NCBI GenBank assembly: GCA_051294375.1
Contig: CM119267.1
Coordinates: 24,439,783 to 24,503,782, forward strand
DNA from: Paraspadella gotoi
Lineage: Eukaryota; Animalia; Chaetognatha
Reading direction: 5' to 3'
Length of the DNA: 64,000 bases
Numbering within the stretch: position 1 is the stretch's first letter; every line of letters begins with the position of its first letter. A program made the position numbers and the translations under genes. This document shows, piece by piece, positions 1 through 60,664 of this stretch. Below the pieces are notes generated by a model that saw only the letters and a program-made list of their open reading frames with translations, was not told the DNA's origin and searched no databases.

Positions 1-1247
1 TCGAGACAAAACTGGCGGAGTTCATAAAATCAAACTTTACAGGCAGTGGCGAAATCTCCGAAGTGAAACTTCTTAATCGAGGTGATATTCTAGTTATTGC
101 TAAAAGTGATAAAATTTCAACTCCATCCTTAAAATTGAAAACTGGGCCCAAAACAAGTATAAAATTGTACCAAGGTTGTCGGCAACAAATTCTATCACGA
201 GACAAGTTGTGTTAAAAGGAGTAGACACTGAGATCACTGAAGAAGCCAAAAAAAGGAATTTGACGAGCAGGTAATTCCAACTGTATTTGTTAAACGTATG
301 AGCTCCTACGCAAATACTGGTAAACCCTCTTGGAATGTAAAAGTGGGACTGAACAAAAACGAGCACTTTGAAAAGCTGATAAAAGAAGGTTTCAAATTTC
401 AAGCCCTTTACAAAAGATTTAGAGTTGACCAATACAAAGTAAATGACTTTCTTCAGTGCTTTAAATGCAAGGACTAGGACATGGCAGTCGCTCTTGCCTG
501 GCTGAAAATGAAGTTTGTCTCGTTGTTCTGGCAACCATAATCACAGAGACTGTAAAGAGAATGTCATTCAATGTGCAAACTGTGGTGGTCCTCATACATC
601 TAACTCGAAGGTCTGTCAAGTACTCCAAAATGCAACTAGAGATTTTCAAAACAAAGTTACATCTGAAAATAGATCTCAAACACAGTCTTACGCAGCGATA
701 ACAAAAGAAAAGGAAAATGAGAGATTTATGTTAACAAAGCAAGATTTAATGAATTTATTGTTTGGGGTTGGCCACATGTTTCGCGAAATGAAAGAACTTA
801 CAACTGATTCAATCACGGATACCAAAATATGGGATCTTGCTGACAATCTGGTCACGAACTTTATAACTCAGAAGGGTGCCATGAGAAAAAACTTTAATGC
901 CACCAAGACAGCGAGAACAGAAACTGCAAAACAGTTCAGTTCCACAGAAAAGTTGACACTGAATGTGTCAGTAAAGATCTGACTGAAAACACTTGTCAAA
1001 CAAATGAATCAAACTACGAGTGGGGGACACCATCTGCCCGGCCATAGAAAGTTATGAAACTTTGAATTTAACACAAAGTACAAGTTCAACCATACCAAAT
1101 AAAGAACGTCGGAAAAGTATAGGTAGAGTTCTTCCCAAAAGCCCAGTATCAAGTATAATCCCAGAAACAAAAACAAAAGGCAAGCAGACAAAGAAAAACA
1201 TAAATCTTGACAAAGCACGAATTCCCAGTAATGATTATGGAAAGTGA
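1..1247 (+). pseudogene. LINE ORF1, gag-like nucleic-acid-binding protein (disrupted)
   Basis: Zinc knuckles read across frames at ~455-625: CFKC..GHGSRSC, CSRCSGNHNHRDC and CANCGGPHTSNSKVC, followed by SYAAI. Several frameshifts and stops. Confidence 0.82.
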
Positions 1248-4080
1248 AATTAATTATCTTTACTGTCTTAGCCTAAACACGAATGGTAAACCAACAAGAT
1301 TACATGAGTTAAAAAAATTAATTGATGACATATCAGAAAACAAAAACATAATTTTAATCTTTAACGATATACGAGTCACCAAAGAAGAATGTCTCAATTT
1401 TAAAAACTTTAAATTTATTGTCAAAACAATGCTTCTAATCCAACAGTAGCAAGTGGAGTCGGAATAGGTGTTCCCAAAAACTATCTGAGAGAAACTTCGC
1501 AAAGTGAAAAATACAATGAAGGTTTAATTGTAGAAATTGTGAATTTAGAGATTGCAACAATCTATAATCATCCAGGAAAAGATTTTCCCGATTCCTTTGT
1601 AAAAGACTTTTTAAATCACAAACCAGATAAAAGATTAATTCGACTTCTAATGGGAGATTTCAACTCGCCAAACAAATATTTTGGAAGTCGGACGACAAGT
1701 AGATCTGGTGAAGAATTACTGAACATATTTAGTAAATACGGCCTAGTTCGTGTGCATGATGACAATATGACTTACATAAGTAAAATTACAGGGGAAGCAA
1801 ATATCCTTGATTTTGTTTTCTGTGACGATAAAAGCATAGATCATGTTAAAGACTACAAAGTGTTGGATGACGTGGGAAGCGATCATTTGCCTTGTCTAAC
1901 TAAGATCGCAGTAAAAGGTGTAATCCATGAAGATAAATTAACAAAAATAATCAACTATGAAAAATTTAAACACATTGTAGATGAAGAATTCAGAAAAATC
2001 CTAAAAAATAAAGAAAACTGGGAAAAACTAAATCTTGAGGAAAAAGTAGAAATTTGGACCAAAAAAATACATTTTGCAAAGGAACAGTGTTCTCAAGAAA
2101 TAAAATTTAAACAAAAGGGAAACTGCATCCTATCGCCAACAACTTGGAAGTTAATTAAAGAACAACGGAACTGGTCAAAGAGAAAAAATTAAGAGGTCTA
2201 AATTTTAAAGAAAGTATCAATGATAAAGAGGCTTGGAGAAAATATTTTAACCACGTCAGTCGAGAAGTGAAAAAATCTATCCGTGAAGATGAGGAGATGC
2301 ACGGAAAACTAAAAATGAACAAAATCATTGGAGAAAGAGACAGCGGAAAAAAGTGGTCAATGATAAAAGAATTAATTAATTGTGGAAAGGAAAATGGCAA
2401 ATCTGATTGCATGCTAAAAAAACCAGATGGCACTTTTCAGAATCAAAATTAGAAAATATGGAAATATTAGCAACAAGGATGGAATCGGTGCATTCTGAAC
2501 CAGAACCTAATAATGAAAACAAATGGATATTTGATCAGGTACAAAATTTTAAGTTAGAAAACAGCAAAATTTTTAATGAAAAAGAAGAAACTCAAACGGA
2601 ATTAAAACTAAGTGACAAATGCAATGTAATTAAGTTAAGTCAAATAATTAGGAATTTTAAAACTAAATCAGCCCCAGGAAAAGATGGAATCACCCCACAA
2701 ATCATGAAAAACTTACCTCTCTCAGCAAAGGTGATTCTCAGTGATATCATGCGAGAATGTCTAGACAAAAGTATATTTCCTAAACTCTGGAAACATTCAA
2801 ATCTTCGAATGCTCCCAAAACCCGGAAAAGATCTGACAGATCCAAAAAGCTACCGACCAATAAGTCTGATCTCAGTAGTTGGAAAAATATTAGAAAGATT
2901 AGTAAAAGAAAAACTGACCGAGTGTACAAAAGAATTAAATGCTATGGGCCCGATGCAATCTGCATACAAGAAAGGTAGATCTGCACAAGAAAATGTCCTC
3001 AGGCTAGTGGAAGACATTAACTGCAGCTTCAGAAAAAGATACTGCACCATTGGTGTTGCATTGGACTTCTCTGTTGCCTTTAATTCGATGTGGAGCAATG
3101 GATTAATCTACAAAATGCATGGAAAAGGATATCCACTAAATCTACTCAAAATGATCAGTTCATACCTCCAGGACAGATCCATGAATATTGTTGATGGAGA
3201 TCTTTGTTCTAGAACCGTCATGCTAAAAAAGGGGCTCCACAAGGAGGAATATTGAGTCCTGATTTATTTACGCTTTATGTAGACGATTTGCCAGTCCCTC
3301 ATGATGTAAAAGGAAGCGGAGCGAAATACGCTGACGATACGTCACTCTGGGCTGAAGGAAAAACCCCAAAAGAAGCAGTGGAAATCCTGCAACCAAGATT
3401 AGATGAAGTAGTGAAATGTGTTCAACTTGGCAACTCAGTTTGTCTCCGGGAAAATCACTAATGACACTCTTCACTCATGCCCCAGTCACAAAGACTATGA
3501 TTTTCAGTTAAATTTGGGCAATGAAGAAAGTAGTTCGAAAAGAAAAACTCAGGCTCTTAGGCATTGACATAGATGAAAAGTTAATGTGGACTGGATTCAT
3601 TGATGATCTGCTAAATAAATTCAAAAGCAAAATTTTAATGATAAATCGACTGTCTAAATTTAAAAAGGATCATGATAGTGGAATGAAACTGATTAACACT
3701 GTTTATCAAAGCCTGGTCGTGTCTGTCTTAAACTATTCCAGTCTGGTATGGATTACAAACAAGTATCAATGGGAAAAATTGGAAAAACTAAATTTAAGAG
3801 CCCTAAAACCTTTTTAAAACTGCCTATGCATACCTCTTCAAAAATTGTGTATGATGCAGCAGGTACAACAGAAATGAAAGGACAGATTGAGAAAAGAGCA
3901 ATGAAGAGAATAATTGAAGTGACCAAAGGAAATGAAATGTTTGAAAGGACAGTACACAACATAGAGAACGACAAACGGAACACACACATATCACCAATGA
4001 AACTGTGCTATGAGAAACTGAAGTCGGACAACATCTGCCTTAGCACATTCTTTGGATTTGACTGTCATTGCGAGTCTTGA
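1207..4080 (+). pseudogene. LINE ORF2, AP endonuclease + reverse transcriptase (split into about 6 fragments)
   Basis: APE motifs: LSLNTNG, IYNHP, MGDFN, ILDFVF, GSDHLP. RT motifs: KSAPGKDGI, LPKPGKD, SYRPISL, QSAYKKGRS, LDFSVAF, a frameshifted (GA)PQGGILSP, YADD, LLGIDID. No RNase H is evident. Confidence 0.93.
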
Positions 4081-4579: not shown

Positions 4580-7500
4580 CTGTCGATCGACTGGAACGAC
4601 GAGGCGCTTGAGCCTCCGAGCGATGGCCTTTTGGTCGGCCTTCCAAAAGACTTCCTCCGTCTCGCCGTTCTCGTCTCTGAATTGCAAAATAGAGTAGCGA
4701 ATAAAAAGACAAAAAGACAAATTGTAATAATTAACGAACACTGTTTTAATAACAAACTACTCCAAGACAAGATATACAATTAACTACAAAATCTGCTATG
4801 AATTAAAACGGAAGAGAAAGCGTTTAAAACATAAGCCGATTGCAGCTAAATGGAAAACAAATAGTAACGCAAATCCTCCTTTAAAAAAATGCAAAATAAA
4901 CAAAGACAAAACCCGTCACCAAAACGAGTCAAAAAGCCAACTTCCCGCCCTCTTCCGCAGCCGTCGAAACGGAGCCGCGCGCACCTGAAAAGGATCTCCC
5001 CGTCCCATTTGCCGTCGATGGTGGCGATGGTTTTGGCGCCGAGTTTGATTTTCCCCACGACGGCGTTCGACGCTTCCGATCCGCCGAAAAAGGGTTTCAA
5101 TTTGAAATCGAGTTCCGCTCTGAATTGAGGAGGGGGGGGAGTGGTGGGGGGGGGGGATGCAGGTATTAAGATCTTATATTGATATTTATAGATTATTATT
5201 AAGTTATTTTTTATTATCTTTTAAAACGTTCAAAAGCACAGACGTATTATATTAATTATTGTAGAATATCAGCTATGCTTAGTTTACAATTAAAATTTGG
5301 ATTAAAATTTAGACATTGTATTCGAACTTTTTTGTTGTTGTTTATTTAGGAGTTTAGATTTTTTTAATACTTTCTTCTCTTTTATGGATCCGTTCCAGCC
5401 CCCCCCCCAGGCCCCGGGGCACATCGCCTTAGGAAGGGTGTCAAACCATCTCCAGGCCACCATCCCTGCAACACCTCACACCACCCCGCACCACCCCAAA
5501 TCACTCTGCAACGAAGTTCACCTGTATCGGGTCTTGTCGCACTCGATGCTGACTTTCCCTCCCAACTCGGCCGTCATCGTCCCCAAGAGGATTCCCTTAC
5601 AGTTGGCGTAGGGCATCGACATCACGTAGTCTTCCCCGCGCTTGAGGAGGGTCAGGCGGGCCTGTCCGTCCATGATGGCCTGGTGGAGGAGGAGGTGGAA
5701 ATTGGGCGGAGAATAAATAATTGAAAGGAGAGAGAATAGAATAGAATTGAAAGAAAGAAAAGAAATAATTAGAAAGAAAGAATACGTTGAGGAGTGTAAT
5801 AAAATAAAATAAATAAAAAAATAAAATAAAACAAGAAATAAAGAAAGGAAAAAAGTGAGAAAGAAAAAGAGAAAAGAAGGAAAGAAGGCGAGAAAGAAAG
5901 AACGAAATAAAGAAAAAATGAAAAAAGAAAAGAAATAGCGCAAGCCAAAAAAACCCAAAAAAACACAGACTCTCAAAACAAACCAAGCGGCCCTTACCTG
6001 CAATGAGTTTCCGTAAAACTTGGACCTGGCCAAGATCCCGCAGGTGAGGCAATAACCGTCCCGTCGGTTAGAGACGTGGAACACAGAGATGGGAGGGTGG
6101 TGCGAGACCTGCGAGCGAAAGGAGAAAGACGAACCTAAAACCCTGACCGTCGTTTTGCTCCTTAACAGACCCTCGTGACTCACCTGCTCCGCCACGTAAA
6201 ATGTCCTGGATCCCGTGGCGGGATTCTCCCAACAGCAGCGGAAGACTTCGCCAAGGATCGGGTTGTAGGGCTTCTTGAGTCCCTTGGGCTTTTTGTAGAA
6301 GCCGGAGATGTACCACTTGAGAACGTGTTTCATCCTGGCGAGAAAACGGAAACAATTTTGTACATTTAAATAATTCTTAAAAGTAAAACTTAACTACTTA
6401 CATACTTAACTCGTCGAATAAAACAAAAAGTATGAAATTATTAGCATCAAAATTAAAAGTTGTATAACTTTCTTCAATCTACAATTCTACGTGCTGCTGT
6501 TCTCATTACGAGGCCAAGCTCAGTATTCTCCAGACTCCACATTGTGGAGTCCACAACCCAGCTACTTTTTCTGGTCCCACATACCTCAGGAAAGGATCGT
6601 CGAAGGCGGAGGCTTCCTGCAGCAGATCGCAGTGATAATAGAAGTCGGTGAGTTTGTCGAGAAAAGATCGAGGTTCGAGGATGAAGGCGGGCAGCACCAC
6701 GCGGGAAAGATCCATGCCTGGACGGACCTAGGGTGGGGGAATGAATGATGGGAAAAATTATTTAAAAATAAGTAGCCGAGGCTAAACTTAATATAAACCC
6801 CAAAACAAAACAATTAAAACAATATTAAGTCATCATTCGAATTCCGTAGTCAAAGCGGTAGACACTGAATTACGGCGCCAATAACTGTTTGTTTCAAATA
6901 ATATATACAAACGACGCCTTTTGTCTTTTCTTAAATTTTACCTTAGTCCGGTGGCCAAGTTACCAATATCTAAACCAAGCTTTCCATCTTCCAGACCTGT
7001 TTGAGTAATTCCCAAATGACGCTCTTGTTCTCCTCGCCGAATTCCTCCGTCTGCGCCTGATCGCCCAACTCTCCGAACTCCTCCGCCGGCCCCGCCACGT
7101 AGGGAGTCATTTCGCCGCCGCCGCCTTTGATTAGGGGAGCGTGGCGGGTAGGAGAGGGTGGGGGAAGGGGGGTTGCGAAGGGGGTGAGACGAGGAATGGA
7201 GAATTGGAAGGGAAACATGGGTTGTGACTGATTAAGGTTTTCATTATGGTGTCCAAGAAGTTATGGCAACAGCCGGGTTGCCTGTGATGCCCATTGGGAT
7301 GGGGCATCTCACTGTTGGCTTTGGGGGCTTCCGACCCTCAGTGACGCCTCCAGTCACTGGCGCGGTTACCCTAGGACGGTCTCGCTTTGCCAACGTAGAG
7401 GGAAGTCGTTAGGACTGTGGATGGAACACTACGCCTGGGATGGTGTATTCCCCCTCTGAGCCAATGGATTTGGCTGAAAGATGGCGGACGTGAGGCGGTG

Positions 7501-8196
7501 TGAATATACCGCCACAAAGTAGTATTATAATTTAAAATTATTATTAGAGTTGACACCTTTAGTGGACTCACCTAAGGAAAATTATTGGATTAAAGGAAGG
7601 TGAGACATTTAAAATACAACGTATTGTTTGTCACTGTATCTAAACCCTAATAATAATAAAAGTATCTCGACGTCAACAACCGAAATCTCTTTTAGTTTTA
7701 CTTATCTTTTCTCTTCTAATATCACTCCTCTTCTTCTTTCTTCTCCCTTCTCTTCCCCTTCTCCCTCCTCACCTTCTTCCTCTTCCTCCTCCTCTTCGTC
7801 GTCCGGCGCTTCCCCTCCGTCGTCGCTGGCTTCCGACTCGCTCGGCGCCTCCTCCTCGGGCGACGCCTTATCCTCGGCGTCGGGTCCGTCGAGGTCACGG
7901 GGGAAGTGGCCCTCGAGGTCGCTCTCCGTCCAACTCCCCGTCCGCAGGTGGCGCAGTTGCGTCGGCAACGGCGCCTCGGCAGAGGACGCCGCCGTTGCCG
8001 CCACCGAACGGGCGATCGACGCCGCGAGGGACGTCGCGGCGTCGACGCCGCTCCCGTCGGGTTGGTACGAGACGCTGCCGCAGCGTGGAGCGGAGCCGCG
8101 GTATGACTGGATTGAGATAAAGGAAAGGGAAAGTGGGAAGGTGGGGAAGAAGGATGAAAATGTCGAAATTCAGTAACTCGGGTAATTTTAATTTCT

Positions 8197-8249
<53 letters not shown>

Positions 8250-11200
8250 ACACAAAAGTAACTACTATGTATATTTAACTTGAATCGTTGTGAGGAATGA
8301 GAGGCAGTCAATCGGAAGATAAGTAACTGATTAAGAAAAAGAGAATATAGGGGAGAAAGATAATAAGGAAGAAAAGATGATCATAATTGGATTAATAAAA
8401 GAGAAAGGGGAGTGGGCAGAGAAAAGAAATGTGAATTGAAAAAGAAAATGGGAAAGGAAAGAATAAAAAACCATAACAAAGGAAAGGAAAGAAAAAAATC
8501 AAAATGAAGGAAAGTAAAGGAGTAAAAACCAAAATGAAAGAAAGGAAAGAGGTAAAAACCAAAATGAAGGAAACGAAAAGAGAAAAAAACAAAATAAAGG
8601 AAAGTAAGGGAGTAAAAACTAAAATGAAGGGAAGGAAAGGAGAAAAAAACAAAATGAAGGAAAGGAAAGGAAAGGAAAAAAAATCAAAATGAAGGAAAGG
8701 TAAGGAAAAAACAAAATGAAGGAAAGGAAAGGAGAAAAAAACAAAATGAAGGAAAAGAAAGGAAAGGAGAAAAAAACAAAATGAAGTAAAGGAAAGGAAA
8801 GGAGAAAAAAACAAAATGAAGGGAAGGAAAGGAGAAAAAAACAAAATGAAGGAAAGGAAAGGAGAAAGGATGTAGAAGCGAAGGGAGGAAAAATTCGTTA
8901 ATCCTCAAGGACGGAAGCTTAAGGCCTTTGAAGGATAAAGCTGATGAGTTTTGCCGAGGAGTTTGATGAATAGGAAGAGGAGGAGGAGGAAGAGGAGAAA
9001 GATCTTGAGGATTATTACGCCTCACCGGCTGATTCTTTTTCGGGGGGGGGGGGTGAGAGTGAGATAGAGAAGTCGTTGGCCAGTCAACTCCCGTTGGTCG
9101 AGAACTGATAAAGTTCGAGAGGCGAACCGCTTCGGAAAACACACGAGTTAATAAACTTGAAGTCGACTAATGAATGTTTCCATTTCTATAATGTCAATTT
9201 AATTCGCTATCACCTCGCTCTAAATATTCTCTCCTCGATTCTTATCGACGAAATTCAATCGCTTTCACTCTTTTGCTCCGCTCATTAATCCATCGTAGTT
9301 TAGTTTAAATTTTAGAACTCTTTTTTTAATATTAATTTTCATGATTAATTATTTGAACTAAATCATTCATACAAATATTATAGAAAACCGTCGGTTTTTT
9401 TTTAATTTATATTTATCTCGCGTTCAAGTTTTTCTACATTAAAAAATTGAACAAATGAACAAACCAATAGCTCTTCTCCAACATTTCTCTTACCTCACTC
9501 CCTCGCCTTCTCTCAATCCCACCGCCTCGATCGTCTGAATAACAACAACAACAACAAGACCCAACCTCGTTCCTAACCTGGAACGAGTCCTCCATTGCGC
9601 TGCTGGCGCTGCCCGAGGTGCTCCCCCGCGCCGCCGCGTCCACCCGGACGTCGCCGTCGCTGCGGCGATGTCGGTGCTGTTGCTGCAGCTGCTGAGATTG
9701 CAGCTGTTGCGGAGGTTGATGTTGAGACGCGACGCCGCCGCCGATGGAGCGCTTGAGTAGCGTCGAACATCGGAGCGCCAATTCGAGGGCGTCCATCCAG
9801 CATTTGCCTGAGGAAGAGAGAAGGGGGGCGGGAGAATAAGATGAATATTGGAAGGAGGATGAAACGAGATGATATCCGCTCCCTGCCCCCCTCCCCCCCT
9901 TTAACCGCTCACCAGCCGCCTCCGACGTCGCGCGGAAGATGAGATAGTTGACTGGAAGAGGCTGAACCATCGCCGGAATACTTTCACCCTTGAACACAAT
10001 CATTACGTAATACGTAGTCGTCTTTCTCTTTTCCTTTTTCATCATTTGCCTTCTTTCTTAGTCACTTTAGGTTTTATTACCTTTTATTTCTTTCTCTTCT
10101 GTCTCCCTATCTTTGTCACTTATGTTTTATTACTCTTTCTTTCTCTTTTTCTTTCTTACCGTCTTTCTTTCGCACTTTAGGTTTTATCTTTCTCTGTTTC
10201 TTTTATTCTCTTTCTCTCACTTTAGGTCCCTTCGCCGCCCAAATGCTTTGATCCATTGGATGAAAGAGTTTGAAACAGAAGCCTTCCTTTTTTGAAGGCC
10301 TTTCGATGAGTTCGCAAGTGTTGAGGAGAATCGTCCCAACCCAGTAGCCTGAAGAAAAAAAAGATAGTGGAGGAAAACGAGTCATTTATTTATATTTAGT
10401 TGATTTTTGTCTCGAAGAAGAAGCGTGTCCCGACTATGAGGTATTAAACACCCGAACTGAGACTAAATAATAAATACATATATTTTTTTAACCGTATTTT
10501 GGCATATTTCATACAATAATTATAGGCATTTTGAAAATTTTGAAATCCCAAGCAAGTCCAAACACGTCTCGTTCTGTCTGCCAAGCAAGCGCTCGTTAAT
10601 TCAAAAATTGCTTGAACTGTTCCCGTTTTAAGTCGATTTTAAAATAAACCAAATAACAATAAGATAAAAAACCCTTGCGCATCCAATCAAAGTCAAATAT
10701 TTAAAGAGACTTTCCTTTCTCTTTTATAGAATTAAAAATGTGGGTAAAGGGGAACGAAAAATATCATTTAAAAAGTCACACGATGAAACGGGTTAGTTTT
10801 AACAAAATAAACCATCGAAAAGCTTTATTATGATAGTAATAAAAATTAATATTATATTTCACGGGGGAAAACTTTTTTTTCAACCACCGTTAAAAAAAAT
10901 GACAAAACTACTAAAAAAACAACAACCAAAGTTTTCAATAGAGAAAAAGAAACCGACTCACCGCCAGGATGAAGATTAACCTCTTAAGATCGAGATCAAC
11001 ATTAAAATAATCAAAATCCGTTTTTAACTACGAAACGAAAGGGAAACTAAATCCGCACATTTAAATACAAAAATGTAAGGATTTCTTGGCATCAAAAGAT
11101 CACCCGCCAACCAACTCGCATTGCCATAGCGACGAGAGAAACAGACTCACTCGATTTCATCTTTTGACTTTTGTAGAGAATGAGGAGTCCGGGTTTGAGG

Positions 11201-22640: not shown

Positions 22641-24972
22641 TCATCTTTCCCCGTTCCTCCCCATCGCCTCCAAGACTCCTTCCAACTTCTCGTCGATTTT
22701 CTTTTGCATCTCCATCATCCTTTCGTCGACCTGAGCGAGGATCCGCGCCTCCATCGCCTGCAGGTGAGGTCGCAGAAGTGGTGGCATCTGGGGCGCGTTG
22801 AGCGGCGCCACGACGTCCGTCGTCATCAACCGCGCCGCCTCGAGTCGCCTCGCGATCGCCTCCGCGTCGACGACGTCGAATCTTGGCGCAGCGGCGGCGC
22901 CCAACCCCGCGACATCCGCCGACGCCTCTCTCCGCCGCAGCTCCTCGATCTGCAGCGCCTGCGTCGCCCGCAGCTCCCGCATCCGCGCAAGCTGCGCCGC
23001 CTGCGTCGCCTTGACGGATCGCATGAGAGTCTCGGCGCCGGAAGAGAGCGGAAGACCGGCGGAGGCGAGGAGGCGTTGGACGGCGTCCAGGTCGAAGGAG
23101 GAAGAGGAGAAGGGGGAAGGGGAGGAGGAGAGGGGGGAAGTGAGAGGGGAGAAGGGAGAGATGGGATGGCGAGGCTGAATTGGGAGAAGTGGAGGAGGGA
23201 AAGAGAGAAAATTGAAATACACGCTGGAAATATGTTAGCGATGCCGGCGGGAAAAGACATTAATGTAATGTGTGGCATGGGGTACAATTATTACTATTAA
23301 ATCTTTCGAAAAAATTAACAAATAAAACATAGTAACATACAATTAACGTACTATAAAACAAGTAATTGGTAGAGGCATGGTAGTGTTGTCCTTTTGTAAT
23401 ATAGGGAGTTATGGCAACGGGAGGATAGCCTGTGATACACGGGGCGCGGGGTATCTCACCAACTGGCGTAGGGGCTGCGGACCCTCAGTGACCGCCTCCT
23501 GTCACTGGCATGTTTATACCGGCACCGTCACATTTAAGCCAGAACCGGGATACCCAGGGATTGAACCCGGGACGCACGGATGGAATGAGATGATTTAGCC
23601 TGCTCAGCCATTGAGACGAGGCTGAGGACGGACAGCAGTGAGGCAGCTTTAAGTCTTGCTGCCACAGGATCCCCCCACCAGACTTCTCCACAGGGGCCTC
23701 AATCCTGAGGAGATGTCTGAGAGAAGGTTTTGATCTCATTTCCATAGTGAGAGCGAGCGGGTGAGCGAGTCTGGAGCGTTACCAGAGAAGTAGGGCATAG
23801 GCGTGATATGCATACCCTAAGCGACGTAAGCGTGGGCGCACGGTGCGCAGCGGTTGCGTGTTCGAGAGTAAGGCTCACCACTTATGGCAACGGGAGGATA
23901 GCCTGTGATACACGGGGCGCGGGGTATCTCACCAACTGGCGTAGGGACTGCGGACCCTCAGTGACCGCCTCCTGTCACTGGCATGTTTATACCGGCACCG
24001 TCACATTTAAGCCAGAACCGGGATACCCAGGTTACGCACGGATGGAATGAGATGATTTAGCCTGCTCAGCCATTGAGACGAGGCTGAGGACGGACAGCAG
24101 TGAGGCAGCTTTAAGTTTTGCTGCCACAGAGTATCTAATATGCTACCATGTCAAATGTAAGTCAAATTAAAGTGAAATTAGTCAAATTAAAGTCAAATAA
24201 AAAATCCTTTCAACTTCAATCAGCCCAAACTCACCCTGACGTCGGCTTCGACGAGATGAACGGAGATTTGGAAGATCCTCAATTCGTTCATCGACTCCCG
24301 CCCGCCACCTTCCGCCCCTCCCATTGCCCCCCGCAACGAGGCGAACTTGACCGCCAATCGCGTCGTGGACGAGGTGGACCTCCATCGGTGCAGGAAGACG
24401 GCCGTTTGGAGGAAGTCTCCGTCGAGGGTGGCGAGGTAATCGCCCTTTGGCCAGGCCGTGTAGAGTTCGAGGTGTCGGGCGTTGGAGACTATTTCGAGGA
24501 CGGAGACGGCAAAGGCGCCGGGGGTGTTCGAGGTAGTTGAGGCGTGTTCGTTGGAGGATGATGCGTCGCAGGAGATGAACATCAAACAGGGAGACTCTGG
24601 TTCCGAGGCTTCGAAGGCGATCGAGGGAAATTCGTCGTCGTCGTCGTCTTGTCTCGTGACGTCGCCGTCGTGGTCTTCGTCGTCGTCGTCGTCGACGTCA
24701 CCGTTACAGTCGCCGTTGAGGTATTTGTCGTCTATTCCGTCGTCGGAGTCTTCGACGCCGTTGCGAGGCGGATCGGCTTCGTCGCCGCCACCATCGCCGC
24801 TATCTGCGTCGCCGCCGCCGCCGCCATCGCCACCACCTTCACTTTCGTTCTCGGCGCGATTAACGTCCTCCCCAGTTTTACCAACACGAAAGACATTGAC
24901 GACGTCTTTCAACGAGGGCGTCGGCGTCGTCCGTCGCCAACAAAAGTCGAGTTCCACGCCGTCAATCAACAT
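22641..24972 (-). CDS. C10orf88: C10orf88/PAAT-like protein, two exons (24972-24235 and 23174-22641)
   Basis: ATG at 24972, a GTGAGT donor and a CAG acceptor in phase 0. SPCLMFISC...IVSNARHLELY..DYLATLDG, FDLDAVQRLLASAGLPLSSGAETLM and C-terminal MEARILAQVDERMMEMQKKIDEKL resemble PAAT conserved blocks as I recall them. Confidence 0.75.
23410..24128 (-). mobile_element. Miniature non-autonomous LTR retrotransposon (TRIM-like), 719 bp, in the PAAT intron
   Basis: Near-identical direct repeats at 23410-23666 and 23883-24128 with minus-strand termini TGTGGCAGC...GTTGCCATA. TSD GAGT at 23406-23409 and 24129-24132. PBS-like TGGTGAGCC 2 nt after the 5' LTR (23880-23872). PPT-like GGTGGGGGGA just before the 3' LTR. 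The 216-bp interior is non-coding. Confidence 0.9.
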
Positions 24973-27900
24973 CTCCGTCGGCGGCGCCCACGACGTCGAA
25001 ACTAAGTGACGAAAGTCAAGACGCGATCAAACGGATGGAGCCCTCGATCACATTTCTTTGATTGACGGGAGTCAAGAAATAGCTTCGTGCCAGCGAAGTG
25101 TACGACTAATCGTAGATAGTATTTATAAAGTACATCACTGCTTTTATAAAATGTGATCAGTCTAAATATTGAGAACGAATATTTAAATAATAAAAACAAG
25201 TGGAACTGACAATAACAAGAGTCGAAATTGAGATTTGAGACCTTCGGACCCTAAGCGTCGATCAAAAAAAAAAAGGTTCGGCTTCCACTATGACGAAAAG
25301 TAAAACGAGTTCTTCGCTGCAAAGAAGAATCAGGACTAGAACTGTCGTAACAGGCGATGATGTCCCCGAACAGGCGTCTGGCATCGTCTCGCCTGTCCGC
25401 AATCGTCCAAGAGGTCGACGACGATGTCAACGACTTGTCAACGACGACAACAACATGTTCGACGCCGACACGACCTTCTCGCCAGCCGCAGCGGGCAGCT
25501 TTCGACGACGACGCGGCGGCAGCAGCAGCGTCCGCAGTCCTCGAGGTAAATAACTCTTTAGTTTTTTCTCTGCATTTTGGCGAACTGCTGCGGAAGACTG
25601 CGGCGGGAGATGCTTCAGGAGCAGCCGCCGCGGCGTCGGCTCCGTAGGGCGCGTGGGCTGCGACGGCGGCCTTTCGACCAAAGAAGAGATCACATACGAA
25701 AAAGAAAAGGAGAGAGAGAGACAGAGACAGAGACTGACTGGAGAATCTGTTGATTCATCGAGAGAGCGAGTGGTGACCGACGAGAGAGGGCAGCACGAGT
25801 TGGGAGCCAAATTCGGGAGAGATGGATAAACAAAAGGCCAACCATTGATAGATTATGAAAGTTGGTGCTTAGTCAGACTTATAATTAGAATACAATGGAA
25901 ACATACTTGGAAATGAGAAGCCAGGTGCTCTGGTTATAATTTCGTTGTCATTTCATAGATTCGCTAGGTGACTTAGCTCTAGGGAGACAAGAAAATATTT
26001 TTGTAAATGTTTTGTAAACATAAGCCGAGACCATGACTATCTAAACACAAAATATTGAAATGTGAACTATAGCTACGTATCTATCTATAACTATTGTTTG
26101 ACTGCCTGCTTGACCTTTTTAATCCTCACTGAGGACCTCAGCTCGTTTTTAGAAATTATAAAAATGCAAATCTTGTTTATCATTCGTCACAATTTAGACA
26201 GTCGGGATGACTTTATTATTATTCACAGTTTAACTTAAAACGAAGTTTTCGTCAGATTCCATCGCGTGTACAAGCAACAGATCTATCTTCATACGCAATC
26301 CGTATTACAATGTCAAAGAGAGAGAGAGGTCAACTGCGTACATTTAACAGAAAAAGAAAGAAAACAAACTTTTTGCCATAAAATGATGAATTCAAACGAG
26401 TTTCTGGAAGATTTAGAGAATTAGAGAAGTTGGGTCCCTCAGAGACGGAGGTAACCCTTAATTGTGTCCTCTTTTTCTCTATTATTTTTTAAAAAATTAA
26501 TAAAAATAGGGAATTTAAAGTAAAGTTAACGAATAGTGCGAAAGAGACATAGTAAAGATAAAAAAAGCAAGAAAAAAAAACACTCGATAAAAACATTGTG
26601 TAACGCGTTATTACGATTACTACACTGAGGCGTTATACTGTTGTGGCTGATGAAACCGGGAGCAGCTTTCTCTTACATCATAATTTTGGATCCACCAATT
26701 TGTAAAGTTCCATCACCCGAAATAATAATAGTAACAATGTATAGTTATACGGTAATAATTCTCGTATTGTGAGAGGGTTTTCGTTTTGTTTTGAACGACT
26801 CAAGGTGAGGGTAATAGTAGGGGATAAGAGACCAGAATTCATTTTGCATAGATTTTCGTTTGACGTGAATAGAAATTCGGAGGGAGCGAGTTGACGCGAC
26901 GACTATCTGCCAAAATTATGAACGGCGCCACGGAAAACGAAAAAACAACATGGCATTGGCAAAAACTTAATTGTCCAATTTTGTATTTTATACAAATACA
27001 AATTATTTGTCCAAACAATTTTTTTCCGAACGCCTTAAAAAATTTGTTTCTTTGTTTCTTTGTTTTTTCTTTGTTTTTAGCGAAATAAAAACCTTTCATC
27101 ATCTTTTCCGTCGCGCCTTCATAAGGTTTTTTTTTTAAGAATCTAAGTGTTTGATAAAAGTATATTCATTTAAAAAAATAAAAGTTTTTTTTCTTTTCAT
27201 CGTATCCGTAGGAGAAAATTCAAGGTTCTGTGTTCCTTCGAAAATAATCGTTTATTTGGTACGATTAAATTATATCCATTCTGTTCGTACGGGTGCACGG
27301 TTTATTGTGAATAAATCATAAAAGTGTTAATAAATAACTCCGCTAAGCGTGCGATAAAATTAAGCGACAAAGAAGAGTGTTAAAAATAATAAAATATTTT
27401 GCGTTACGATTTAATATACAATGAAAGGCACTTTTTGTTTTGAAGGAAGACTAATTAGAAAAAAAGAGGAAAAGCGTTTTCAAACTCCGTAATCTTGATC
27501 TTTGATTATCCGCCGATGTTCTTCGAAAAACAAACGCAAAACAAGAAAATCCTGTTTCGTTATGAATCTAAAAAACAAAAAAAACAAAAAGTGGCCAACG
27601 TTCCTTCTCTTATTCTGGCCCGTAATAAGAGGAACAACGTGTAAGCTCTTTATTTTTTATTATTTACGTTTTTTTGTTTGTTTGTTTTTTTTTTTCGTGA
27701 TAATGACGACATGAGCAAAATTGCAAATTACACGTAACTCCTAATCTAATTTGCGCCGAGCGGAATATCTTTTGACCTCCGATCAAAATTCGCACACAAC
27801 TACGAATGTTAACCTTAGGCCGTAAAATGTAAAAAGTCGGCAGATTTGAACGTTTCGTTTACAGAGCAGCGTTTGTAACAGAGAGGCAAAAATAATGTGT

Positions 27901-46037: not shown

Positions 46038-46062
46038 NNNNNNNNNNNNNNNNNNNNNNNNN
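46038..46062. other. Assembly gap
   Basis: Run of N. Confidence 0.99.
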
Positions 46063-46188
46063 AATATACGGAACGAAATGAGAAAGGCAAAAAAAAAAAA
46101 AAGAAAATGATTCGGAAATAAATTGACAAATACGAAGTAAATAAAGATAAAAGGAATAAAATATTCGTTAAAGGTAACCGGGGGCAAG

Positions 46189-46425
46189 GGGGGGAGGGGA
46201 GAAGAGAACGGGAGAGAGTATGAACGAAATCGTGACGAGAATCCAAGTTTTTTTAACGCGAGTCTCAAAACCTTGAAGAAATTCGATATGAAATCAAAAG
46301 GAAATCCGTTACAAAATCTCGTCGCGTATCTTTCACGAAATTCGTTTGCAAAATCATTTGATTTTTAGGCGAAAAATAAAAAAAAAAATTTTTGACGACG
46401 ATGAGGAAAATCCCACTGTTGGCCT

Positions 46426-46519
<94 letters not shown>

Positions 46520-47347
46520 ACCACCCGCCACTCAGGCATCTCACCCTTTGAAAATTCTATCAAACGTTATTCGCTTTTCCGTCTCTCTATTTACAATGAA
46601 TTAGTAACAGAAATGATCTTACTTTATATTGTAATAGTAGCATAACTACGCATGATTGTAATTCTTTTATTTTCTAGTATACTTGTTAAATAATTTGTTA
46701 TGTTTTTTTATTTTTCCGTTCTCGGCGTGACCCTCTGTGAAGTTTGTCGAAGTAAAAGTCACACTTATTCTATCGCATCGCCGCATCACATCTGTTGTTC
46801 GAGTGATAATCACGTCGTAACGAAATGAATCATGCTCCCTCGCTCAATTACTGAATTCGTGGTCATCGCGATCTTCATCATCAATCGTCCGTCGTCGTCG
46901 TCGTCGTCGTCATTATCGTCGTCTTTTTTTTGTTTTAAGAATGACGGGGCGTGTTCGTCAACCATCAATCATCACAGCACCACAGCCACCACCGCCCACC
47001 GGCCAAATCTCGAAGGGTCGTCTTCGTCGTCGTCGTCGACCTTAACGCTTCGTGGGTAGCTTCTAACTTCTAACTTCTAAGCTTCTCTCTGTTTGTCATC
47101 AAATTTCGACTCTCGAAAATGAAAGGAGACAAGAAAGGCCGGAGGAATAAAAATAAATAATAAATAACAAGGAAGTAGCTAAACCCTGCTTTATATAGAC
47201 TTAAAATCTGCGCAAAGTCAAAGAAATAAGATTTAAAAAAAAAAAGAAATGAATAAAAAATATCGAAAGAAAAATAAACACAAAAATGAGTGGAACTTGA
47301 TTCAGTTCTCCTCCCAAGATTCTCACCTCTCTCTCTCTCTCTCTTCT

Positions 47348-47427
<80 letters not shown>

Positions 47428-48012
47428 GTTTTGTACGTTGGGCTCGTCGAAACCTTCGGCTGCCAAAAATTCGCCCAAATTTGTCGCTTTTTCCCAAAAA
47501 ACTTTTTTCCCACAGAATTTGAATCAAGGAAGAAGAGACGGTTTCATTTAATACATTAGCCTTTGTGATCTCTAATGATCTACACCATTTATTCTGAGAA
47601 CTAATCATTAAAAAAAATAGAAGTCAAATTTAAGAAAATTTTGTGGGCGAAAGATCACTTGTGACATCGGGAAATTGCTTTTTGTCTAGGGTAAGTTTAG
47701 GGTAAGCTAAAAGTCTTTTTATGGTAACCTTGAAGTGTAGTGAAACGAATGCAGCTAATCGAGTAAAGAATCATAAACTTTACTGAACGATTTTTATTTT
47801 CTCATATTTTTCCGATTTGAAGATATTTTTTATTTTAAAGTAAATTATCTATTATTTTAAAATAAATTATCTATTATTTTAAAGTAAATTATCTATTATC
47901 TGGTCATGAACGTGCAGGAAGGAAAAAAATGAATCAAAAAATTCAAGCTTTACTAATAGTACGGCATCTATTCTATCTCTACTAGTAAACGACATGCTGA
48001 AATGAAAGTCTC

Positions 48013-48091
<79 letters not shown>

Positions 48092-49127
48092 CTCTCTCTC
48101 CTCCTATTCTATTCTGGAACAGAATCGTCTGGTTATTTCTTCATACCTGAGGAGATGTCTGGTTGAAGATGGTATCACATATTTACTCCTCCTCCCTCCT
48201 CCTCCTCCTCCTCCTCCTCCTCTCATCATTGGCTCTATGGCGATGGAGTGTCTCTTGTGTTGTTTATTCGTTTAGTAAAACGAAAAAAAAACACAAATGA
48301 AAACAATTTAAATGAATTATCACTACTAAAATATAATATCCGAAGATCTTAGCGGGATTTTAATTTAAGAGAGCATTTATTGGATTTGCGAAGTCAAGGA
48401 GAAAGAAAGAATTGTATATATATTTACATACAATTGAAACATTCTTTGAAATATTATACACTGCATTGATAGTGAAGCCAGGTTCACTGGGAGTAAATAA
48501 ATAAGATGTGAGAGAATGAAAGCTTGCAGAACCTGCTATGTCATTATCTTGTAAGAGTGATAGAGGCCTTAAACGACCAAGGCCTGTCCAAAGTCAGGGA
48601 CAAGATAGCCTATTTATTAAAAGAATGGATAATTTTATTTGGTTGTTACCGCAATTTCATACAAGACTAATACACATAGATTGAAAGAATAAATGAAACC
48701 CTCAGATAGATAGAATAGATAGATAGATAGATAGATCTTGATAAATATATAAACAGTCACCCACATACTTAGATACTTAGATCGATAGATAAATAATAAT
48801 ACATAAAAAGTTGGATAGATATAAGAAAGATAGATAGAAAGCCAAATAGATAGATAGATTTATGAAATAGAAATAGGGGGGGGGGGAGGGGAGAAGAGAA
48901 CGGGAGAGAGTATGAACGAAATCGTGACGAGAATCCAAGTTTTTTTAACCGAGTCTCAAAACCTTGAAGAAATTCGATATGAAATCAAAAGGAAATCCGT
49001 TACAAAATCTCGTCGCGTATCTTTCACGAAATCGTTTGGCAAAATCATTTGATTTTTAGGCGAAAAATAAAAAAAAAATTTTGACGACGATGAGGAAAAT
49101 CCCACTGTTGGCCTTGTCTCTGTCTTG

Positions 49128-49204
<77 letters not shown>

Positions 49205-51560
49205 TCTCTACCCCCGCCACTCCAGGGCATCTCACCCTTTGAAAATTCTATCAAACGTTATTCGCTTTTCCGTCTCTCTATTTACAATGAATTAGTAACA
49301 GAAATGATCTTACTTTATATTGTAATAGTAGCATAACTACGCATGATTGTAATTCTTTTATTTTCTAGTATACTTGTTAAATATATTTGTTATGTTTTTT
49401 TTATTTTTCCGTTCTCGGCGTGACCCTCTGGTGAAGTTTGTCGAAGTAAAAGTCACACTTATTCTATCGCATCGCCGCATCACATCTGTTGTTCGAGTGA
49501 TAATCACGTCGTAACGAAATGAATCATGCTCCTCGCTCAATTACTGAATTCGTGGTCATCGCGATCTTCATCATCATCGTCGTCGTCGTCGTCGTCGTCG
49601 TCATTATCGTCGTCTTTTTTGTTTTTAAGAATGACGGGGCGTGTTCGTCAACATCATCATCACCACCACAGCATCAACACCACCACCACCGCCACCGCCA
49701 AATCTCGAAGGGTCGTCTTCGTCGTCGTCGTCGACCTTAACGCTTCGTGGGTAGCTTCTAACTTCTAACTTCTAAGCTTCTCTCTGTTTGTCATCAAATT
49801 TCGACTCTCGAAAATGAAAGGAGACAAGAAAGGCCGGAGGAATAAAAATAAATAATAAATAACAAGGAAGTAGGCTAAACCCTGCTTTATATAGACTTAA
49901 AATCTGCGCAAAGTCAAAGAAATAAGATTAAAAAAAAAAGAAATGAATAAAAAATATCGAAAGAAAAATAAACACGAAAAATGAGTGGAACTTGATTCAG
50001 TTCTCCTCCCAAGATTCTCACCTCTCTCTCTCTCTCTCTCTCTCTCTGCTCTCTCTTCTGCTCGTCTGCCTTGCTCGTTTTGTAACGTTGGGCTTCAGTC
50101 GAAACCTTCAGCTGCCAAAATTCGCCCAAATTTGTCGCTTTTTCCCAAAAAACTTTTTTCCCACAGAAATTTGAATCAAGGAAGAAGAGACGGTTTCATT
50201 TAATACATTAGCCTTTGTGATCTCTAATGATCTACACCATTTATTTCTGAGAACTAATCATTAAAAAAAAATAGAAGTCAAATTTAAGAAAATTTTGTGG
50301 GCGAAAGATCACTTGTGACATCGGGAAATTGCTTTTTGTCTAGGGTAAGTTTAGGGTAAGCTCAAAAGTCTTTTTATGGTAACCTTGAAGTGTAGTGAAA
50401 CGAATGCAGCTAATCGAGTAAAGAATCATAAACTTTACTGAACGATTTTTATTTTCTCATATTTTTCCGATTTGAAGATATTTTTATTTTAAAGTAAATT
50501 ATCTATTATTTTAAAATAAATTATCTATTATTTTAAAGTAAATTATCTATTATCTGGTCATGAAACGTGCAGGAAAAAAATGAATCAAAAAATTCAAGCT
50601 TTACTAATAGTACGCATCTATTCTATCTCTACTAGTAAACGACATGCTGGAATGAAAGTCTCTAATCTCTCTCTCTCTCTCAACTACTCATTTCTTATTC
50701 CTCCACCCTCTCTCTGTCTCTCTTCTCTCGTCTCTTCTCTCTTCTCTCTCTCTCTCCTCTATTCACTATTCTGGAACAGAATCGTCTGGTTATCTTCATA
50801 CCTGAGGAGATGTCTGGTTGAAGACTGGTATCCAATATCCATACCCTTCTCCTCCTCCTCCTCCTCTCCTCCTGCCTCCTGCCTCAACTCCTCACTGAAC
50901 TAAACCAGTACGATCATTGGCTCTATGGCGATGGAGTGTCTCTTGTGTTGTTTATTCGTTTAGTAAAACGAAAAAAAAGACAAATGAAACAATTTAAATG
51001 AATTATCACTACTAAAATATAATATCCGAAGATCTTAGCGGGATTTTAATTTAAGAGAGCATTTATTGGATTTGCGAAGTCAAGGAGAAAGAAAGAATTG
51101 TATATATATTTACATACAATTGAAACATTCTTTGAAATATTATACCACTGCATTGATAGTGAAGCCAGGTTCACTGGGAGTAAATAAATAAGACTGTGAG
51201 AGAATGAAAGCTTGCAGAAACCTGCTATGTCATTATCTTGTAAGAGTGATAGAGGCCTTAAACGACCAAAGCCTGTCCAAAGTCAGGGACAAGATAGCCT
51301 ATTTATTAAAAGAATGGATAATTTTTATATTGGTTGTACCAATTTCATACAAGACTATACACATAGATTGAAAGAATAAATGAAACCTCAATAGATAGAT
51401 AGATAGATAGATAGATAGATCTTGATATATATATAACAGTCACCCACATACTTAGATACTTAGATCGATAGATAAATAAATAGATACATAAAAAGTTGGA
51501 TAGATATATAGAAAGATAGATAGAAAGCCAAATAGATAGATAGATTTATGAAATAGAAAT
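46189..51560. repeat. Tandem duplication of about 2.69 kb (copy 1 ~46189-48875, copy 2 ~48876-51560)
   Basis: Both copies begin GGGGAGGGGAGAAGAGAACGGGAGAGAGTATGAACG and end GATAGATTTATGAAATAGAAATAG. They are collinear throughout, with scattered 1-nt indels. Confidence 0.95.
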
Positions 51561-51605
51561 AGCGAGCAGAGAAACCCGAACCCTCGTGAAGCCGCAAAGA
51601 GTCAC

Positions 51606-56094: not shown

Positions 56095-60664
<4,570 letters not shown>

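Follow-up and report, generated by a model that had tools for sequence, protein, structure and literature searches.

Plant LTR retrozymes are non-coding retroelements whose two long terminal repeats (LTRs) each hold a type III hammerhead ribozyme, and double cleavage of their transcripts gives a unit RNA of ~600–1000 nt for which circles have been demonstrated (PMC4918200). LTR retrozymes have been described as plant elements with type III hammerheads, a preprint (10.64898/2026.07.22.740005) placing them 'primarily' in plants. Here we analyzed 64,000 nt of the chaetognath Paraspadella gotoi (assembly GCA_051294375.1, contig CM119267.1, forward-strand positions 24,439,783 to 24,503,782; hereafter the window), which contains a solo LTR of one family (S) and a full 719-bp LTR element of another (T). 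We consider it probable that these belong to small non-coding LTR elements whose minus-strand RNA holds a type-P5 twister ribozyme fold, and that predicted cuts in both LTRs would free a 473-nt, likely circular RNA in a retrozyme-like manner.

Like plant LTR retrozymes, the full element is non-coding and has two LTRs with a putative ribozyme in each, a site resembling a primer-binding site (PBS), a purine-rich run resembling a polypurine tract (PPT) and a 4-bp target-site duplication (TSD). Solo LTRs are numerous in both cases, the GC content is 57% here and >55% in the plant elements, and the unit RNA that double cleavage yields in plants is predicted here. Unlike the plant elements, the chaetognath element has an animal host, a type-P5 twister in place of the hammerhead, LTRs that end in TG..TA and a unit of 473 nt, and its circle is only a prediction (PMC4918200).

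Two kinds of animal element are also comparable. The T-variants of Perere-3 in Schistosoma mansoni likewise have a twister that processes retroelement RNA, with a weak P1, as is predicted here; but Perere-3 is an RTE non-LTR element with one ribozyme at the 5′ end of the long interspersed nuclear element (LINE) and with the TSD at the cut site, whereas the twister described here is internal to both LTRs and has the P5 permutation. The 5′ end of RTE LINEs is where retroelement twisters have been described, and 1.6% of the S. mansoni T-variants had an LTR reverse transcriptase domain within 10 kb downstream, the available portion of that paper stating no placement in an LTR (PMC8501958). Animal non-LTR retrozymes are also small ribozyme-bounded units, and some of them cut as dimers through a palindromic helix (PMC7229834). 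Unlike the element in the window, they consist of tandemly repeated units, carry type I hammerheads and have links to Penelope-like elements (PMC7229834; preprint 10.64898/2026.07.22.740005).

A type-P5 twister fold in the LTRs

The solo LTR (7262–7516, minus strand, 255 bp) starts with TG and ends with TA on the minus strand, has 6-bp imperfect inverted ends and is flanked on both sides by the TSD AAGT (left copy 7258–7261, right copy 7517–7520). The full element, non-autonomous and also on the minus strand, occupies 23410–24128, with a 5′ LTR of 246 bp (23883–24128) and a 3′ LTR of 257 bp (23410–23666). By its sequence, the minus-strand RNA of all three LTRs is assigned to a known class, holding a type-P5 twister ribozyme fold. 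This permutation reportedly goes back to Roth et al. in 2014. Type-P5 twisters have a four-pair P2 with a sheared A-G, a three-pair T1, a T2 of GC dinucleotides, a U-A cut site, an L4 closed by G-C and U-A, the catalytic residues G45 and A7, and termini in P5 (PMC5408937).

In family S, the fold extends over 7314–7394 of the minus strand, as placed by a descriptor, by alignment and by a weak partial match to Rfam twister-P1 at 7319–7362. The order along the minus strand is the first P5 strand (7394–7389, pairing with 7319–7314), a linker, P2′ (7385–7382), the equivalents of G45 and A46 (G 7381, A 7380), T1′ (7379–7377) and the 8-nt P1 stretch (7369–7376, read 7376–7369), which is self-complementary and a candidate for pairing between two ribozyme copies. 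The predicted cut site (7368^7367; U7368^A7367) and a further A follow, and then P2 (7365–7362), the GC of T2 (7361–7360), P3 (7359–7353/7345–7339), P4 (7338–7335/7326–7323) enclosing L4 (7334–7327), and the second P5 strand. The corresponding folds of family T lie on the minus strand at 23936–24015 in the 5′ LTR (predicted cut 23989^23988) and at 23463–23542 in the 3′ LTR (predicted cut 23516^23515; U23516^A23515). The twister lies inside both LTRs, 148–149 nt from the LTR start.

The residues at the predicted active site, U6, A7, A8, G45 and A46, were present in all three LTRs as a U-A cut site followed by A, with G-A opposite. T1 had three Watson-Crick pairs in every LTR, with its middle pair swapped between the families, and T2 paired GC with GC save for a single G-U, the C31U change, in the family T 5′ LTR. 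All four P2 pairs were formed in family T, and three of four in family S. In P4, G23-C32, U24 and A29 were found in all three LTRs, and P5 had six and five pairs in the two families. The elements share with type-P5 twisters P3, P4, T1, T2, the U-A cut site and the opposite G-A, and apparently P2 and the termini in P5. They depart from them in the 8-nt self-complementary stretch in place of a stable P1 hairpin (PMC5408937), in the C28 of family T, in the mismatches that end P2 and P4 in family S, and in Rfam scores below threshold.

The descriptor was hand-written from the twister consensus after the sequences had been seen, and the elements were then checked against PMC5408937. Searched on both strands of the window, it matched three places, all on the minus strand, one per LTR and at homologous positions; 40 shuffled windows gave one match, and 5000 shuffles of each LTR gave none. 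P5 of family T is reported here in the register homologous to family S, the descriptor's own best P5 having used another register. In Rfam searches with relaxed E-values, minus-strand partial matches to twister-P1 covered P3, P4 and L4 in both families (15.2 and 13.6 bits); the other matches were chance ones to miRNA and snoRNA families. The twister half outside the Rfam match lies upstream, as the circular permutation of type P5 would predict. A 951-nt scan of the full element listed no twister, which came up only in a 111-nt scan.

The two families were compared through the solo LTR and the 3′ LTR of the full element, which were identical in 157 of 251 aligned columns (63%) and in 13 of the 14 core positions checked. 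Within the fold, 97% of the cells of 22 named pairs were able to pair, and four pairs had changed on both sides: two in P2, one in T1 and one in P1, the last via G-U. Slid controls paired at 29–47% and contained no two-sided change. The T1 change is the middle pair of a pseudoknot, and P5 adds one further two-sided change beyond the named pairs. This covariation between families suggests, short of a significance test, that the twister fold has been maintained.

An initial annotation of this stretch had proposed that two diverged LTR families keep the same hairpins through compensatory changes, and each of the motifs that it quoted was found at the implied place. The four hairpins exist, but only three of their 27 pairs changed on both sides: two in the terminal hairpin formed by GTGAGGCGGT and GTGAGGCAGC (7494–7513 on the minus strand, 5′ end of the LTR) and one in the GTGA..TCAC hairpin 3′ of the ribozyme (7284–7312, minus strand). 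The CAGTGAC stem is invariant, and the AGCCA/TGGCT stem has no two-sided change, four of its five pairs being identical and one broken in the alignment. The most telling covariation, including that of the pseudoknot pair, falls instead at 7394 to 7362, in the middle of the LTR that had been called unalignable; this segment is the 5′ half of the ribozyme, with the P5 strand, P2′, G-A, T1′, P1 and the cut site. The hairpins had been read on the plus strand; the ribozyme and the sites resembling a PBS and a PPT have the opposite, minus-strand orientation. The broader proposals have held up better: selection on an RNA fold is supported, as is a ribozyme of the kind found in LTR retrozymes, with activity predicted from sequence.

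The same annotation, having considered hammerhead and hepatitis delta virus (HDV) ribozymes only, had raised the possibility of a new ribozyme class. No Rfam family is matched at threshold and extra conserved hairpins flank the core, but the known twister class accounts for that core base by base (PMC5408937), and a new class appears hardly credible. A hammerhead LTR retrozyme was also considered and rejected: CUGANGA was absent from the minus strand of either element, Rfam listed no hammerhead, and the plus-strand CUGANGA in the full element had no GAAA in its stretch.

Several observations weigh against the twister assignment. The Rfam scan for which the initial annotation had called gave no match that reached the gathering score in any part of the window; the weak twister-P1 fragments are far under the 67.2 bits of the threshold (E 0.69–3.4), and no twister-P5 was among the Rfam matches listed. 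In family S, the P2 pair adjoining the active site is a C-A mismatch, with no variant of at least 1% listed there, and P4 ends in an A-C mismatch. At position 28, where A28 pairs with A46 to cap T1, family S has A and family T has C. Nested folding, which leaves pseudoknots out, does not favour the twister helices (P2 probability at most 0.2 and P4 at most 0.23 in whole LTRs), the folding energy of whole LTRs being modestly better than that of shuffles (z –1.92 on the plus and –2.67 on the minus strand). The null test of the descriptor is partly circular, because it was written after the LTR sequences had been seen, and the covariation rests on two independent sequences only, the shuffles of the tool ignoring relatedness. 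A point in favour is that, in contigs of four sequencing runs, 3 of the 81 core places varied at a level of at least 1% (two of them in the P3 loop), compared with 20 of 122 places upstream of the core (p = 0.006), or 16 of 122 when four differences private to the window copy were left out (p = 0.027). However, none of the 52 places 3′ of the core varied, so that low variation extends beyond the ribozyme.

The sub-threshold scores, the P2 and P4 mismatches of family S and C28 of family T would also suit a vestigial twister, whose fold and palindrome are kept for another role, such as dimerising or packaging the element's RNA, or simply by descent while cutting is weak or absent; so would the presence of a highly repeated LTR that is tolerated in a sense intron of a normally spliced gene. 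This explanation nevertheless seems improbable, given that two families of 63% identity have each kept the catalytic G and A as well as the two pseudoknots, one pseudoknot pair having been swapped. In a mutational scan of the rice twister, moreover, P1, P2 and P4 often withstood a single mismatch, with 33 of 69 helix mutants above 0.8 activity, and T1 pairs were exchangeable and C31U was tolerated, while G13, G30, A46 and G48 allowed no change (PMC5113685). G13, G30 and A46 are common to the solo and the 3′ LTR. The G48 position is G in family T and is swapped in family S jointly with its T1 partner, as is tolerated in the rice twister (PMC5113685). We describe the motif as a twister-type fold rather than as a member of an Rfam family, with self-cleavage as a prediction; that the fold in the LTRs cleaves itself at the U-A step is, in our judgment, quite likely.

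The predicted 473-nt unit and its proposed copying

The full element is flanked by the 4-bp TSD GAGT (23406–23409 and 24129–24132), and its two LTRs are four substitutions and one 11-nt indel apart. The interior (23667–23882, minus strand, 216 nt) has no long open reading frame (ORF), because there is a stop in every minus-strand frame. A PBS-like site starting with TGG lies 2 nt past the 5′ LTR (23860–23880, minus strand), with a putative Trp-like tRNA identity, and a PPT-like purine-rich run (23670–23689, minus strand) ends 3 nt ahead of the 3′ LTR. No tRNA gene was found in the window. Terminal-repeat retrotransposons in miniature (TRIMs) are defined by short LTRs, a short non-coding interior, a PBS, a PPT and a TSD. 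With LTRs of 246 and 257 bp around an interior of 216 bp, and with its TSD and its sites resembling a PBS and a PPT, the element has the TRIM layout; it equally has the layout of an LTR retrozyme, with two LTRs, a PBS-like and a PPT-like site, a 4-bp TSD and a non-coding interior.

These features bear on whether the repeats could be pseudo-LTRs of a Penelope-like (Naiad-type) element or of a non-LTR retrozyme. Penelope-like pseudo-LTRs have ragged 5′ ends and no PBS or PPT, and they are linked to an ORF with reverse transcriptase (RT) and GIY-YIG domains. Here, no RT/GIY-YIG ORF lies beside either copy, the ends are sharp on both sides over hundreds of insertions, the termini are inverted and both loci have 4-bp TSDs, in addition to the TGG site and the purine run at their LTR-typical positions. 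Known animal retrozymes do derive from Penelope-like elements (preprint 10.64898/2026.07.22.740005), but the animal non-LTR retrozymes have no LTR, PBS or PPT and have longer TSDs (PMC7229834), which makes this origin very improbable.

The two LTRs are spaced 473 nt apart, exactly the distance between their predicted cut sites, in line with the ~473-nt RNA that had been anticipated; the predicted unit RNA is thus 23516–23988 on the minus strand. Both elements of the window lie in sense orientation in introns (two of two, the intron of the full element being inferred). The intron that holds the solo LTR belongs to an ORP5/8-type oxysterol-binding protein gene (5518–10057, minus strand), which a sequence search showed to be an animal gene, which was spliced at three listed joints in one sequencing run (X9), with no cover beside the LTR, and whose upstream exons towards 10057 are placed from ORFs only. 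The full element lies between two minus-strand ORFs, one of which has a PAAT-like domain (27.4 bits, at the Pfam cut-off), with splice-like signals around it, and appears to sit in a sense-oriented intron of this gene (22641–25026, minus strand). Because of these positions, the unit is probably released from host read-through transcripts. A transcript that runs through both LTRs, whether begun in the LTR or in the host intron, would give the 473-nt RNA by cuts at 23989^23988 and 23516^23515; the minimum-energy fold of this RNA pairs both ends. This unit would be without a terminal repeat and would likely be circularised by an RtcB-type ligase; RtcB circularised >80% of axolotl retrozyme RNA in vitro (PMC7229834). 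The circle would then be copied by a helper retrotransposon whose Ty3/gypsy reverse transcriptase, perhaps from the CsRn1 lineage, would be primed at the PBS, and integration would yield solo, full or multimeric copies. In plant retrozymes, the missing terminal repeat is overcome in this way: the unit RNA is circularised and the circle is reverse-transcribed from the PBS, with solo, full or multimeric copies as the outcome (PMC4918200). The 4-bp TSD of the full element fits Ty3/gypsy and is typical, together with a tRNA-Trp PBS, of the CsRn1 lineage (PMC3630058). The elements resemble that lineage in the TSD and, putatively, in a Trp-like PBS; a derivative of the lineage would also share its ends with an autonomous CsRn1 element, and none was found in the window.

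Some results do not favour this life cycle. Shuffles fold almost as well as the 473-nt unit (z –1.57, not significant), no contig with interior sequence on both sides of an LTR was found among the joints listed, and no helper element was found in the window. In run X9, the LTR had 316 times the summed depth of the ORP5/8 mRNA, a ratio for which a DNA carry-over of 1.1–1.7× would account; none of the LTR-holding runs listed is on record as RNA.

The evidence for the fold would serve equally well if the twister were active in a linear LTR life cycle, where it would define the RNA 3′ end in place of polyadenylation and no circle would form. If transcription started just before the 5′ LTR cut, the 5′ copy would lack the ~26 nt that a type-P5 twister requires upstream of its cut, and the 3′ copy alone would be active. 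The PBS-like and PPT-like sites and the two near-identical LTRs suit ordinary LTR reverse transcription, and no circular junction was seen in the contigs among the joints listed. However, the linear cycle would presuppose that transcription starts internally and that the R region is very short, and read-through of the sense introns in which both elements lie would make both ribozyme copies complete. We consider it an outside chance and retain the circular 473-nt RNA as our preferred interpretation.

In both families, the 8 nt from T1′ to the cut site are fully self-complementary. The innermost P1 pair, U-A in family S and C-G in family T, would join adjacent residues, which is impossible within a hairpin, and the P1 hairpin energies are +2.7 and +5.0 kcal/mol, compared with –11.0 and –10.9 kcal/mol for the self-duplex. 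Self-complementary sequences make up 2% of all 8-mers and 14% of the 8-mers with matching outer two pairs; within the LTRs they are 2 of 248 and 4 of 250. As a feature of the sequence, the self-complementarity is modest evidence for pairing between copies. It is conceivable, and we hold this tentatively, that the short P1 forms between two copies, so that a solo LTR or a monomer circle would be a poor cutter; dimers are the better-cutting form of those amphibian hammerheads whose short helix is palindromic (PMC7229834). Within a single intron-borne transcript, the two LTRs would then pair via the 8-nt palindrome, cut together and free the 473-nt circle, while thousands of intronic solo LTRs and the monomer circle would stay largely uncut. 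On the other hand, cutting of a monomer may be possible because the twister P1 is reported to be dispensable (PMC5408937). The combined proposal, a very abundant animal LTR retrozyme with a twister whose P1 forms only between two copies, is in our view rather doubtful.

Copies of the two families and other features of the window

A profile search found no further copies of the LTR element in the 64-kb window. In two DNA runs, 7471 and 3035 contigs were placed on the solo LTR region, and hundreds of contigs departed from the window sequence at 7260–7263 and 7516–7518. Because of these many contigs and of the hundreds that leave at the LTR edges, we consider family S to be highly repeated with sharp ends. 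The depth of the single-copy flanks was 17–18, and the summed contig depth on the solo LTR was 950,000 and 700,000 in the two runs, a sum that, according to the tool's own warning, is not a copy number. One 276-nt contig from a low-depth run labelled as another organism joins a solo-type LTR with three differences to a PBS-bearing interior like that of the full element, and therefore family S has full elements too.

Contigs of runs X1, X5 and X9 (window positions 7297–7500) included many internally deleted LTR variants, with joints that skip 35–144 nt. Several of these deletions take away part of the ribozyme, and one internally deleted variant was also found in family T. The flanks of family S insertions in runs X1 and X5 were very AT-rich, and the bases beside the LTR looked biased, which suggests a target-site preference. 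Runs X10–X12, labelled as other organisms, had low-depth contigs of both LTR families, one of them with 20 differences in 151 nt; these may come from contamination, diet or relatives. Searches for relatives with the core pattern gave no match in metagenomes and none in viral contigs. A pattern of the LTR end and PBS matched 20 loci, none of them related or alike beyond the pattern, with one unrelated loose match to the descriptor. Fifteen of these loci were chance matches in one metagenome assembly, in a tandem repeat with a period of ~129 nt that is presumably a coding array of WD40 repeats.

Elsewhere in the window, an interrupted non-LTR retrotransposon (512–3255, plus strand) has an ORF with a cysteine-histidine knuckle-like motif, followed by parts of an endonuclease (PF14529) and of a reverse transcriptase (PF00078) that lie in different ORFs. 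A tandem duplication of ~2.7 kb (46188–48876 and 48880–51562, 93% identity) begins just past a run of N (46038–46062) and may be real or an assembly artefact. A dispersed repeat of ~190 bp occurs at 48433–48613, 51119–51302 and 58453–58642 (83% identity).

Relation to described retroelements

Like TRIMs, the full element has short LTRs enclosing a short non-coding interior, and retrozymes were the only TRIMs for which we found ribozymes reported. Our literature search, which left subscription papers outside its reach, found neither a twister within LTRs nor an LTR retrozyme of an animal described; the alignments of Roth et al. from 2014 may include these sequences among their twisters. By this analysis, and given the predicted activity, the element would work like an LTR retrozyme yet falls outside that class as defined, by a type III hammerhead in each LTR. 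Such elements may have been overlooked elsewhere, because standard Rfam scans miss the motif.

If the proposed life cycle is correct, the ribozyme class would be exchangeable in the life cycle of LTR retrozymes, and the type-P5 permutation of the twister would gain a concrete role. The Ty3/gypsy machinery may then copy circular templates in animals. If P1 does form between two copies, it would act as a built-in test for full-length elements.

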